A stretch of DNA of 32,000 nucleotides. Origin: Candidatus Babelota bacterium (GTDB lineage Bacteria; Babelota; Babeliae; Babelales; Vermiphilaceae). A program made the translations under genes and the position numbers. The stretch spans positions 90,001 through 122,000 of the forward strand of contig JBDHVY010000001.1 in the NCBI GenBank assembly GCA_039809905.1, in the 5' to 3' direction. Shown in pieces: positions 18,764-29,431 of this stretch (position 1 is its first letter; each line of letters starts with the position of its first letter). The notes beneath the pieces were generated by a model. That model was not told where the DNA came from. It worked only from the letters and a program-made list of their open reading frames with translations, and ran no database searches.

Positions 18764-18784
18764 AATTTTTACCCCATGCTTCAT

Positions 18785-18829
18785 CTTATTTCACATGCGG
18801 GCCCCAATGAAGGGATAACAAAATTGGGG
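18785..18829 (+). promoter_or_regulatory. GGGG/CCCC hairpin motif copy (tRNA spacer)
   Basis: CTTATT-tcacatgc-GGG-CCCCAAT-gaagggataacaaa-ATTGGGG-ATAAAAAGG. 7 bp stem and 14 nt loop. Confidence 0.45.
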
Positions 18830-18857
18830 ATAAAAAGGCTGGACGATTTAGTAAAAA

Positions 18858-19086: not shown

Positions 19087-20019
19087 ATGGCAAAGCACAT
19101 ATCCCATTCATTTTTTATTCTTATCTCTCTTTCTTTTTTCTTTATTCAATCATCTCAATCTTCATATGATCATAGCGCTCATGCACAAGCATGGACTCAC
19201 CTATATACTGAACAAATGACACCTGAAGATTTACAAATTACCGCAAACATGCTTTATTGTTTGTATTCCAACACTCTTATTGACTTAAAGATCCAAGAAT
19301 ATTTTAGTCCACTATCTGAATTAAGCCAGATCGTTCACAGCAATCTTTCCGATCCCATGAATCCTAATAATGAAATAGCTCAACTAAGAGTTCTTACAGA
19401 AAAAATTGCTTATCTCACTAAGATTCGTTTTTTATATACAAAGATACTTGATAATTGCTTAAATCATTATAATAAAAATCATATTGTTATTGTTGATGAT
19501 GCTCTTAAGGCATTGCAATTATACGCTGCAGATTCATTACGGGAATGGGCCGATAACAACAATCAATTTTTCATTGAGCATCTTGAAAATTCTGCACGTG
19601 TTATCGCTGAATGCGCTCAATCTATTCATTCTGCATCTAATACTCACAAAGCACTATCTCATGAAATTTTCCCTTTTATTGTAGATGAAAAAGATAAATC
19701 ACTTGCACTTATCAATGTAATCTTAAGAAGTACACCAACATTTATGAATGCTGCATACACTACCATGAATACGCTCAATAATATTTGCAACGATGCAATG
19801 AAAACGATCTGTTTTGGTGCGCATGTCTATAAACAACATTATCAAGCAGTGTATGAGATAATAACAGCGGAATCTTTTGATAAAAAATACGCAACATTGT
19901 TATTTCATGAACAGGGTATATTGCCAGAGGAATATATAGTACTTCTACCAGATGCAGATCATGTATTTGAACATATGCTTGAAACAAAAGAGCTTTTTGC
20001 TCAAGCACAATTAAAATAA
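19087..20019 (+). CDS. Exported helical hypothetical protein, paralog 1 of 3
   Basis: The track ORF starts at 19021 inside tRNA-Pro. ATG at 19087 has AAAAGGA upstream and gives MAKHISHSFFILISLSFFFIQSSQS. It shares TPEDLQITANMLYCLYS and LLPDADHVFEHMLETKELF with 20041..20982. Confidence 0.8.
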   Translation: MAKHISHSFFILISLSFFFIQSSQSSYDHSAHAQAWTHLYTEQMTPEDLQITANMLYCLYSNTLIDLKIQEYFSPLSELSQIVHSNLSDPMNPNNEIAQLRVLTEKIAYLTKIRFLYTKILDNCLNHYNKNHIVIVDDALKALQLYAADSLREWADNNNQFFIEHLENSARVIAECAQSIHSASNTHKALSHEIFPFIVDEKDKSLALINVILRSTPTFMNAAYTTMNTLNNICNDAMKTICFGAHVYKQHYQAVYEIITAESFDKKYATLLFHEQGILPEEYIVLLPDADHVFEHMLETKELFAQAQLK

Positions 20020-20040: not shown

Positions 20041-20982
20041 ATGTTGGTCAAAAAAATCATATTCCTATCACTTACCATATCAACTTTTTGCTTGTTTCCT
20101 GTCCAAATGAACACACAAGATCTTCAATTTTTGCAAACATGGCAAACACAGCACATTGATCAGATGAATCACGCGGATTTGCAATTATTAGCAAATGTTC
20201 TTCATTTGTTACATAGCGTAGCGCTCATTGAATCAAAAACACGGCAATTTTCGCATCCAATTGCACGGCTTAATCAAACAATACGAACAAATATTGAACA
20301 GTACAAAAATGCTACTGAGGAACTCGCCACACTCAAAACCTTGCTTGATCGCCTTTCATTTGTGATAAATACACGTGCTATTTATAATCAAACATTAGCA
20401 ACATGCTTTGCTCATTACGAAAAAAATCCTTCTGATACTATTGAAGCAGCATTAACCAATCTTCAATTATTTGCTCAAAAAAAGTTGCGCAGTTGGGCGG
20501 AACAAGAATTGTTAGAAACAAGCAAGCTCCTTACAGAAAAAGCTGATATTGTTAATAATACCGCACAACTTTTTCAAGAAGCTTCGTTTCTTTATAAAGA
20601 GATGAGTAAAGGTAATATTCCGGTAAAATTATCACCAGAAGACGAAAAAAATAAACAGTTAATACTGCTTTCTATCCTTTTGGAAAGCAATTCTAAACTA
20701 TTTGCTATTTCTGAATACACGACTGATTCTTTGCTTGCAATGACTGATCACGCTACTGAAGTTATTAACGCAGGCACAGAAATATATAAACAATTTTACA
20801 TGGTCGTGTATAACAAACTGATGTCATCAGCAATTGATAAGAAATATACGACAACCTTGTTTAGCATGTATGATGTATTATCTGATGAATATAAATCACT
20901 GCTACCAGATGCAGATCATACATTTGAACATGCATTAAAAACAACGAAATTATATACACAAACTGAATATTCACCATTATAA
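20041..20982 (+). CDS. Exported helical hypothetical protein, paralog 2 of 3
   Basis: 313 aa; TAAGGAT upstream; signal-like N-terminus IIFLSLTISTFCLFPVQ. Shared motifs: NHADLQLLANVLHLLHS, YKQFYMVVYN (versus YKQHYQAVYE) and LLPDADHTFEHALKTTKLY. Confidence 0.8.
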   Translation: MLVKKIIFLSLTISTFCLFPVQMNTQDLQFLQTWQTQHIDQMNHADLQLLANVLHLLHSVALIESKTRQFSHPIARLNQTIRTNIEQYKNATEELATLKTLLDRLSFVINTRAIYNQTLATCFAHYEKNPSDTIEAALTNLQLFAQKKLRSWAEQELLETSKLLTEKADIVNNTAQLFQEASFLYKEMSKGNIPVKLSPEDEKNKQLILLSILLESNSKLFAISEYTTDSLLAMTDHATEVINAGTEIYKQFYMVVYNKLMSSAIDKKYTTTLFSMYDVLSDEYKSLLPDADHTFEHALKTTKLYTQTEYSPL

Positions 20983-21612: not shown

Positions 21613-21648
21613 TTAAAAACATATTTTATTATAATATTAAAAAAACCT

Positions 21649-21691
21649 CTTAATGTGGGGTCCCCCATTCGGCATATAATAGAGAATGGGG
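21649..21691 (+). promoter_or_regulatory. GGGG/CCCC hairpin motif copy upstream of 21735..22001
   Basis: CTTAAT-g-TGGGG-T-CCCCCATTC-ggcatataataga-GAATGGGG. The loop contains TATAAT. It is nearly identical to the copy at 29372..29413. Confidence 0.5.
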
Positions 21692-21734
21692 TTGTATTAA
21701 AAAACTAATTCTCTATAAAAACTTGGGGGACTCG

Positions 21735-22752: not shown

Positions 22753-22809
22753 TACCTAAAAATATTTTTTAATCGTGCTATGCTGTTGATAAAGAAATTC
22801 GATAAAACT

Positions 22810-22851
22810 CTTAATACGGAGCCCCCATATGAAACAACGTAAAATATGGGG
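22810..22851 (+). promoter_or_regulatory. GGGG/CCCC hairpin motif copy upstream of rodA-like gene
   Basis: CTTAAT-ac-GGAG-CCCCCATAT-gaaacaacgtaaa-ATATGGGG. It ends 12 nt before the ATG at 22864. Confidence 0.5.
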
Positions 22852-22863
22852 TAAATAATACCT

Positions 22864-23967: not shown

Positions 23968-24026
23968 ATTTAGCCCAACCTACACTACGTTACAATTGGG
24001 CACCCATTAAACACATAGAAAAATAT

Positions 24027-26065: not shown

Positions 26066-26911
26066 TTATTGCTGTTGCCACACTACAAAAAACGATCCTT
26101 TATCTGGCAATAATGCTGAAGTAAGATCTTTTGGCGCGCCATTATTAGTCACCATTTCAATACCAATATTTTGCCATGAATTATTACCAATTGGAGCGGT
26201 AACACCATTAATTGTAGCCATACAACCCCACATATACGCTGTTACAAAATCACTCAACGGAAGTATGCCATTCATATAAGGCGCTTCTATAATCCATTCA
26301 GCTGATTCACGCAACGCTGTTGAGGATTTGGTATATTTCGTTGGAATAGTATACGATACCTTTTGAGTATCATTCATTAATGTCATAACAAAAGTATTGT
26401 TACCAGCATATACAACAGATGCACTAATCACATCACCAGGATTAAGTGGGAATCCATTGATAACATAACTACCGCCTGGGTACATCTCAAACCATGCATA
26501 ATCTTGTTGAGCACCATTAATAGAATCATGTTCTGTACCTATTTGTTCAACTGTTGGGCTACCATATCCATCTATACCAACCCATAGAGAACTATAAGCA
26601 TCTGTATCTGTTGGTACAATTGTCGGAACAATCCATGAACCCGATACTGCTGAAACAGAATTTTTTGCTGGTTTGCTCAATTTGCTTGCAGCTGCATAAC
26701 CACTCCAATTGGTACTTGTAGTTTGTCCACTTGGAACACGTGCTGATCGAGGGCCTGGTATATGAGGATGAGAACAAGTCACTTCTTTTTTATCAACTTC
26801 AACGATTGTACATTCGATTTCTTGATAACCATGTGAATCATGCTTAGCTAATACACTACTGCATATTATTACCGACAACAATATATTGTAACGTGCAAAA
26901 CCACTATTCAT
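26066..26911 (-). CDS. Exported peptidase family G1 (eqolisin / scytalidoglutamic-type glutamic peptidase)
   Basis: 281 aa; AAGGAG 7 nt upstream; signal-like N-terminus. TNWSGYA, SLWVGIDGYGSPTVEQIGTE, DYAWFEMYP, GDVISASV and AEWIIEAP align block by block with remembered scytalidoglutamic peptidase SNWGGA, WVGIDGDTCQTAILQTG, YDAWYEWYP, GDSIQMSV and AEFIIED. This includes the catalytic Gln and Glu positions. Confidence 0.8.
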   Translation of the reverse strand: MNSGFARYNILLSVIICSSVLAKHDSHGYQEIECTIVEVDKKEVTCSHPHIPGPRSARVPSGQTTSTNWSGYAAASKLSKPAKNSVSAVSGSWIVPTIVPTDTDAYSSLWVGIDGYGSPTVEQIGTEHDSINGAQQDYAWFEMYPGGSYVINGFPLNPGDVISASVVYAGNNTFVMTLMNDTQKVSYTIPTKYTKSSTALRESAEWIIEAPYMNGILPLSDFVTAYMWGCMATINGVTAPIGNNSWQNIGIEMVTNNGAPKDLTSALLPDKGSFFVVWQQQ

Positions 26912-29321: not shown

Positions 29322-29371
29322 ATAATAGCAAGAATCACTATAATAAACTGAAAAACAGTATCTAAAACTTT

Positions 29372-29413
29372 CTAAATATGGGGTCCCCAATCGACATATA
29401 ATAGAGATTGGGG
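29372..29413 (+). promoter_or_regulatory. GGGG/CCCC hairpin motif copy upstream of yicC
   Basis: CTAAAT-a-TGGGG-T-CCCCAATC-gacatataataga-GATTGGGG. It ends 18 nt before the yicC ATG. Confidence 0.5.
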
Positions 29414-29431
29414 CTAAAGGAAACAATCCTG

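Follow-up and report, generated by a model that had tools for sequence, protein, structure and literature searches.

What is the GGGG/CCCC hairpin that stands ahead of a DUF5676 gene at 21646-21693 of this DNA, and what are the similar hairpins found around it? In the 32,000-nucleotide stretch that was analysed (the window), the original prediction described five such hairpins and offered three roles for them, namely a lineage-specific promoter or operator, a regulatory hairpin in 5'-UTRs, or a REP-like element with orientation bias. We consider it probable, at roughly three chances in four, that the motif forms the conserved core of a small, mobile, palindromic repeat that is specific to one clade and REP/MITE-like in kind. 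Among the three roles, the REP-like one with orientation bias is supported, because the repeat is clade-restricted and insertion-polymorphic, its sub-families extend across unlinked loci and it forms inverted doublets; the promoter or operator is poorly supported, and a 5'-UTR hairpin is possible as a secondary role.

Source of the DNA and loci compared

The window has a G+C content of 34% and encodes rplU, mutS, uvrA, rodA, ruvB, yebC, yicC, two tRNAs and many ORFans, together with three WD40 proteins and one ankyrin protein. The relatives of its RodA place the source in the Dependentiae (TM6)/Babeliales, and the nearest species-level relatives by this protein are loci L001 (81% amino acid identity) and L002 (80%). 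Dependentiae are uncultured or host-dependent and have small genomes. The DNA surveyed from this clade of close relatives amounts to 184 kb and is 85% coding. When a metagenome was scanned with a sub-family pattern, 24 loci came up, nearly all of them genuine family members, and several of these lie on 270-440-kb contigs of a relative that is ~84% identical to the window at the DNA level.

Several features of the window genes were noticed along the way. The ORF at 26066-26911 (minus strand) matches Peptidase_A4 (PF01828, E = 5e-31), a mainly fungal family, and may have been acquired horizontally in this amoeba-associated lineage. Two WD40 paralogues (32% amino acid identity) have a near-identical promoter-like block, CCATTGATTTTCTTTTTGRATATTWTGTA, at 4026-4231 and 5909-6070 (minus strand), which is the 'TTGATT-type box' that had been tied to ORFans in the original prediction. 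The DNA block CTACCAGATGCAGATCATRYATTTGAACAT is common to the 3' ends of two neighbouring ORFan genes (19980-20019 and 20940-20982, plus strand), suggesting a gene family that was duplicated in tandem and whose C-terminus is conserved.

Hairpin copies in the window

The copies found in the window, with their covariance-model scores where the score refers to the unit, are as follows.

6476-6520, minus strand: copy 1, in the mutS-rplU spacer (rplU leader), 40.4 bits; box TCTTAGT 6519-6513, tag GGGG 6511-6508, arms (T)CCCAT 6506-6501 and ATGGGG 6483-6478
18770-18808, minus strand: inverted partner of copy 2, 25.9 bits, additional to the original prediction
18794-18831, plus strand: copy 2, in the tRNA-His/tRNA-Pro spacer, 34 bits; hairpin CCCCAAT...ATTGGGG, 18802-18829
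21646-21693, plus strand: copy 3, the focal copy, 41.6 bits; box CCTCTTAAT 21646-21654, G4 tag 21657-21660, T 21661, 5' arm CCCCATTC 21663-21670, 13-nt loop GGCATATAATAGA 21671-21683, 3' arm GAATGGGG 21684-21691
22808-22853, plus strand: copy 4, 40 bits, 12 nt before the rodA ATG (22864); box CTCTTAAT 22808-22815, tag GGAG 22818-22821, arms CCCCATAT 22823-22830 and ATATGGGG 22844-22851
23971-24009, minus strand: degenerate copy in the rodA-ruvB spacer, 20.7 bits, E about 0.003-0.007, additional to the original prediction
29326-29416, plus strand: copy 5 module, ~91 nt, TAGCAAGAATCAC...GATTGGGGCTA, of which the covariance-model core, 29377-29415, is the 3' part

All five hairpins of the original prediction are present with the stems and positions that it gave, and the pattern CCCCA-N15-24-TGGGG occurs four times in the 32-kb window, where dinucleotide-preserving shuffles give an expectation of 0.04. 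The copies had been said to end 12-160 nt before the downstream gene, and the measured range is 12 to 159 nt: 12 nt for rodA, 18 nt for yicC (ATG 29432), 43 nt for DUF5676 (ATG 21735), 77 nt for rplU (ATG 6400) and 159 nt for tRNA-Pro. The focal copy lies past the terminator of the upstream ORF, and its RNA is predicted to fold at -17.7 kcal/mol into the main hairpin and a small box:tag hairpin; for copy 4 the corresponding value is -13.6 kcal/mol (z = -2.97). The copy 5 module sits in the yebC-yicC spacer and directly precedes the yicC Shine-Dalgarno sequence (AAGGAAA). Copies 3 and 5 have, as first noted, near-identical loops that contain TATAAT. The loop of copy 1 belongs to the AAGAGTAGCGAAG sub-family, which is also found at a non-orthologous site in L002 (3959-3995), and an ortholog of copy 1 itself is kept in the relative L146 (1143-1181, 41.6 bits).

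A covariance-model search of the kind suggested with the original prediction, run on the window and its relatives, recovers seven copies in the window, two of which are antisense to the neighbouring genes. Hence, the statement that each copy lies on the strand of the downstream gene is correct for the five listed first, but the window holds two more on the opposite strand. The inverted partner of copy 2 is arranged head-to-head with it around a common GGGCCCC centre, lies antisense to the tRNA genes 6 nt off the tRNA-His 3' end, and folds together with copy 2 as two adjacent hairpins. The degenerate copy fills the rodA-ruvB spacer in antisense, 3 nt past the rodA stop codon and 17 nt before the ruvB ATG; in L002 the same spacer contains a strong antisense copy (11102-11142, 37.4 bits) and a sense copy (11188-11226) that abuts the ruvB ATG. 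Reading 3.2 kb further to the left of the window yielded one weak copy.

Anatomy of the repeat unit

The unit is ~50 nt long and consists of a pyrimidine-rich box, a G4 tag, a single T and a hairpin closed by CCCC/GGGG, with an 8-bp stem and a purine-rich loop of 13-15 nt. Of 37 solo copies, 33 have the box, TCTTAAT or TCTTTAA, placed 1-2 nt before the G run, and an A-rich stretch comes before the box. The CT(T/A)A(A/T)T box of the original consensus is therein retained, and the spacing of 0-8 nt attributed to copy 2 comes about because the 'box' of copy 2 is the loop of its inverted partner hairpin; likewise, its 5' 'GGG' is the 3' arm of that partner. The loops fall into two main types, ...ATATAAT(A/G)GAG... 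and ...GAAGAG(C/T)A(A/G)CGAAG...

Units also occur as inverted doublets. Head-to-head pairs, which have a common or nearly common GGGG(T/A)CCCC centre, were found in the window (18770/18794), twice in L002 (4192/4213 and 9679/9703) and in L146 (5337/5398), and one tail-to-tail pair was found in L160 (3259/3319). In such inverted pairs, the partner's loop stands where a unit would otherwise have its 'box'. Pairing of the box with the unit's own loop, or an extended palindrome centred on GGGG-T-CCCC, was considered and rejected (6.54 versus 6.43 +/- 0.12 with permuted partners).

Some sub-families carry ~40 extra nucleotides on the 5' side, giving a 91-nt module. Its ends, GCAAGAATC...GATTGGGGC, form an imperfect inverted repeat in which six of nine positions are complementary; a terminal inverted repeat was looked for in the ~50-nt units and none was found. 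The 91-nt copies are flanked by TA..TA in four cases and by TG..TG in one (L154). A 2-bp duplication could be compared with a single empty site, which is too diverged to confirm one. Among units in general, TA follows the 3' end in ~59%. Both the terminal inverted repeats and the target duplications are weak, and this counts against the mobile-repeat reading.

A repeat family restricted to one lineage

The family was defined by a covariance model, R1, which describes the core only (tag, stem, loop and stem; 39 positions, eight pairs) and was trained on five window copies and three copies from L002. Over 435 kb, R1 matches only the window, L001 and L002, and within the same 435 kb it gives no match in 13 more distant Dependentiae loci or in seven loci from other phyla. 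As a control we used 684 kb of viral contigs pre-selected for GGGGTCCCC...TGGGG, comprising 120 chance loci picked with the pattern GGGGTCCCCN{19,26}TGGGG, and obtained one weak match of 22 bits. The model is specific, since the distant loci are without matches and the control DNA gave this single weak one. In total, R1 finds 51 copies, 45 of them distinct, in the 184 kb of clade DNA, and seven in the 32-kb window. Against Rfam, only two tRNAs pass the gathering threshold, and the best sub-threshold matches have E values of 8-9. On the DNA compared, the repeat is confined to one narrow lineage of the Babeliales (Dependentiae/TM6).

Selection on the hairpin acts on one strand

The original prediction saw compensatory changes in the stems, and these are borne out by the 45 distinct copies, in which 94.2% of stem cells are paired compared with 77.9% in shuffles. 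Cells in which both sides have changed number 50 versus 16 in shuffles, a value reached in none of 500 shuffles, and structures slid by 1-3 columns are at most 57% paired. The alignment was fitted to R1 and thus somewhat favours the structure, but an effect this large, together with the slid controls, speaks for a genuine signal. Pairing is also strand-specific: there are 15 GU/UG cells and one AC/CA cell (p = 0.0005), and therefore the hairpin is selected as a single strand of the motif strand, either as RNA or as single-stranded DNA. The earlier conclusion that covariation reflects a selected hairpin is correct in this one-strand form. Selection for the hairpin on one strand fits self-propagation as well as it fits a function for the host.

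Insertion, loss and spread of units

Presence/absence polymorphism was observed at three orthologous sites, the yebC-yicC spacer, the tRNA-His leader and the trkH-trkA spacer. In L001 and L002, yebC is followed directly by AAATAAGGAAA(A)AC...CTGATG, with no ~91-nt block in between, and the sites of the yicC copy are therefore empty there. In the tRNA-His leader, a unit lies between a conserved promoter-like block and the tRNA in L001 only. In the trkH-trkA spacer, the window genome has only a scar, TTAATTGGGGGGTTAT; L145 has one unit there and L146 an inverted pair. Decay is also seen, as the copy orthologous to copy 2 lacks the 5' arm in L002 and the 3' arm in L001. At the other end of the range, identity is 100% over the 39-45 nt of two orthologous copies, set in flanks that are 88-90% identical, which hints at constraint on these copies.

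Closely similar units are also found at unrelated places. The 91-nt module recurs at the unlinked loci L148, L153, L154 and L157, upstream of unrelated genes and with 81-96% identity overall. Three unlinked loci are 92-96% identical to one another and 81-90% identical to the window copy; L148/L163 and L153 belong to a single 443-kb contig, and L157 to a different contig from that metagenome. Loop sub-families are likewise common to non-orthologous sites and to different genomes. The spacers upstream of DUF5676 and rodA were also aligned with L001 and L002 in search of empty sites, but are too diverged. A Shine-Dalgarno-derived origin of the G4 tag, in which a former Shine-Dalgarno sequence served as insertion target, was rejected, as the junction in the empty yicC site lacks a G run and the trkA case is on the wrong strand.

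The comparisons show that units have been inserted, lost and decayed at orthologous sites, that they occur singly or as inverted pairs and are tolerated in intergenic DNA only, and that the hairpin is kept by compensatory change on one strand. Beyond this, we hypothesize that copies spread in trans via a transposase encoded elsewhere in the genome; no transposase of the Y1/RAYT or DDE type was found among the 36 window ORFs and the unit-adjacent ORFs of the loci (~184 kb of clade DNA). The hairpin may persist either as a requirement of the mobilising enzyme or as a benefit to the transcript. Copies that lie in sense within leaders and operon spacers would be transcribed and act as stable stem-loops in the RNA, in the manner of REPs and Correia elements.

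Position and orientation relative to genes

All copies are intergenic, despite the 85% coding density of the 184 kb surveyed. Solo copies point toward a gene start or the 5' end of a tRNA rather than toward a gene end at a ratio of 21:6 (p = 0.006), or 17:6 (p = 0.035) when the copies of the original prediction are left out. In strictly co-directional spacers the ratio without those copies is 9:4, which is not significant, and neither is the count over all copies, with 17 sense versus 10 antisense, to which each doublet adds one copy per orientation. The bias of solo copies toward gene starts is suggestive rather than established. Among sense solos, 11 of 13 end no more than 60 nt before the start. 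In all four antisense solos the same (hairpin) end of the unit comes to within 10 nt of the point where the upstream gene stops. The 21:6 bias suggests selection for a host function or targeted insertion. We also considered the replication strand as the determinant of orientation and found no support for it, since orientation agrees with local GC skew in just 10 of 21 cases; replication-coupled single-strand transposition predicts a skew-linked orientation, and the lack of such a link is a point against the mobile repeat.

The copies were originally thought to precede housekeeping genes only. This does not hold in the relatives, where they are also found upstream of several ORFans without Pfam match and of EndoU-like nuclease, HipA-like and MerR regulator genes; rpoD, hisS, tRNAs and genes for a glycosyltransferase and a P-type ATPase follow copies as well. 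With such a mixture of downstream genes, including ORFans, the element is therefore not limited to housekeeping genes. As a separate observation, four of ~45 units lie within 7 nt of the end of a tRNA gene (L001 5350-5388, L167 3697-3735, L147 946-984 and window 18770-18808), 5' of tRNA-His and tRNA-Ser and 3' of tRNA-Leu and tRNA-His, which exceeds the expectation from the few tRNA genes in the sample.

Alternative explanations

The mobile repeat has to be weighed against readings in which the unit primarily serves the host. According to the first, it is a lineage-specific cis-regulatory RNA, that is, an exapted repeat whose transcribed hairpin and box control the stability, processing or translation of the downstream mRNA; selection would keep the element in leaders and operon spacers, and mobility would be only its route of arrival. 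The start-facing solos (21:6) and the 11 of 13 sense solos within 60 nt of a start speak for this reading, the strand on which pairing is selected is the sense strand for most solos, the orthologous copies are more conserved than their flanks, and the yicC copy sits within the yebC-yicC spacer just before the Shine-Dalgarno sequence. However, the bias shrinks to 9:4 or, with all copies, 17:10 in co-directional spacers, antisense copies and copies in convergent spacers are equally well formed, the tRNA-spacer ortholog has decayed in two relatives and the downstream genes have no common function. As the primary explanation we regard it as unlikely; as a secondary, exapted role, an RNA function for the host of sense copies in 5'-UTRs is possible.

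A variant of this combines mobility and function in a portable 5'-leader module, in which a BoxA-like or anti-Shine-Dalgarno-like box and a strand-specific RNA hairpin would together make a mobile nut-like or stabiliser site. This is a speculative proposal to which we give little credence. If it were true, the units would have been spread, and kept in sense just upstream of start codons and tRNA 5' ends, by an intracellular bacterium with a reduced genome and few regulators, which would use these leader modules as a generic post-transcriptional or elongation control.

We regard it as very unlikely that the unit is a promoter or operator, with the box as a -35-like element, the TATAAT of the loop as the -10 hexamer and the GGGGTCCCC palindrome in the spacer as the operator of a dimeric regulator, so that copies would mark a regulon or donate outward promoters. 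The TATAAT sub-family of the relatives does contain TTAATA-N18-TATAAT, matching 10 of 12 consensus positions, transcription is predicted to begin within the 3' arm, 10-60 nt ahead of start codons, and Correia elements are known to make promoters (PMC2649163). Yet no window copy reaches the threshold in a sigma-70 promoter scan, and promoter-like matches in this AT-rich window occur at chance level (59 versus 52 +/- 6.5). TATAAT is present in one sub-family only, about half of the unbiased copies have no -10-like hexamer in the loop, and the orientation bias is the same with or without a TATAAT loop. The L001 unit lies downstream of the conserved promoter-like block of tRNA-His, the window genes have ordinary promoter-like sites of the form TTGAyn-N17-TAnAAT, and copies are also found in antisense, between convergent genes and within an operon spacer. 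Finally, the asymmetry between GU and AC pairs points to a single-stranded form and not to recognition of the duplex.

Still more doubtful is a portable nut-like site, in which the box would act as BoxA for NusB/NusE and be followed by a BoxB-like hairpin, resulting in the recruitment of Nus factors in leaders. The box variants CCTCTTTAAC and CTCTTAAT agree with the BoxA consensus GYTCTTTAANA (PMC5725501) in 8-9 of 11 positions, the box is followed within ~8 nt by a hairpin whose loop is rich in purines, and units tend to be in sense in leaders, including those of rplU, a tRNA and rpoD. But the likeness is short and occurs in AT-rich sequence, the commonest variant, TCTTAAT, is one T short of the consensus, the first and last positions usually mismatch, and the same box is present on antisense copies. 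Intrinsic terminators can be dismissed, as no unit is among the terminator-like sites, T runs are lacking and the 3' flanks are mostly TA- or A-rich, and so can sigma-32, sigma-54 and sigma-28 promoters, for which the spacing is wrong on inspection.

Comparison with known repeat elements

The mobile repeat resembles REP/REPIN elements in being a short imperfect palindrome (~30-40 nt) that bears a conserved, unpaired tag on one side and has many intergenic copies, in its compensatory stem variation and sub-families, and in its head-to-head and tail-to-tail dimers with short spacers; transcription into RNA hairpins is plausible by analogy. To our knowledge, Dependentiae are not among the phyla that carry REPs. 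REP/REPIN elements are mobilised by RAYT tyrosine transposases (PMC3733652, PMC3337134), and REPs have a GTAG or CGTC tag and lie mostly after ORFs, near the 3' end of the upstream gene (PMC3733652). In contrast, the tag described here is GGGG(T) following TCTTAAT or TCTTTAA, most units lie close to the start of the downstream gene rather than after the upstream ORF, and the 91-nt sub-family with its 2-bp flanking repeats is not REP-like.

Correia elements (CREE/NEMIS), a MITE of Neisseria, are ~70-157 bp long, have inverted-repeat ends and a target duplication and are present in >100 copies; promoter creation, IHF binding and RNase III processing have been shown for CREE, whose terminal repeats measure 26 bp (PMC2649163). 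They have in common with the present family a non-coding, MITE-like form (here the 91-nt one), insertion polymorphism, a frequent location 5' of genes and a hairpin in the mRNA if transcribed. The 91-nt form differs in its 9-nt imperfect terminal inverted repeat and in the dominance of the internal/terminal G4-C4 hairpin, and there is no sequence similarity between the two families.

In the lambda nut sites and the BoxA-BoxB sites of rrn operons, a CUCUU(U)AA box is followed a few nucleotides on by a hairpin with a purine-rich loop, placed in sense in transcribed leaders. The succession of a box and a hairpin with a purine-rich loop is a possible likeness in sequence, which would serve as a lead and not as evidence of membership. 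The match to that consensus is partial, and the present family is a dispersed mobile repeat that includes antisense copies.

The repeat is thus a new family of a known kind, and a literature search on Dependentiae found no paper describing dispersed palindromic repeats. A defined family with a covariance model aids annotation, because hairpins of this G4/C4 type would be taken wrongly for regulatory motifs or terminators if the family were not recognised, and the insertion polymorphisms provide a marker for strain-level comparison. Whether a streamlined genome tolerates small mobile hairpins in its 5' leaders, or recruits them there, is a further question for which the family provides a natural test. 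Should the bias toward gene starts extend over the whole genome, this would set the family apart from classical REPs, which are concentrated after genes.

Other repeats and leader elements

Downstream of the repeat in the rplU leader, the block GGGCGTGGTTAAATAAAGTTAATGTGT (window 6419-6475, minus strand) has no match in Rfam and is identical in the ~84%-identical relative L146; it could be a leader element for ribosomal protein L21. A second, unrelated repeat, CACTCAGGGCGAACGGG(R)AGG, forms inverted pairs in L001 (7440-7456, minus, and 7529-7545, plus) and L002 (9656-9672, minus, and 9859-9875, plus), has degenerate copies near L002 4030 and 6960, and is absent from the window and the other loci. 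L003, a more distant relative whose rodA is 71% identical, has a repeated hairpin of its own, CCCAACGAAGCCTTGGCGAAGTTGGG, at 1798-1823 and 11098-11123 with similar flanks, and small hairpin repeats may be common in this group.
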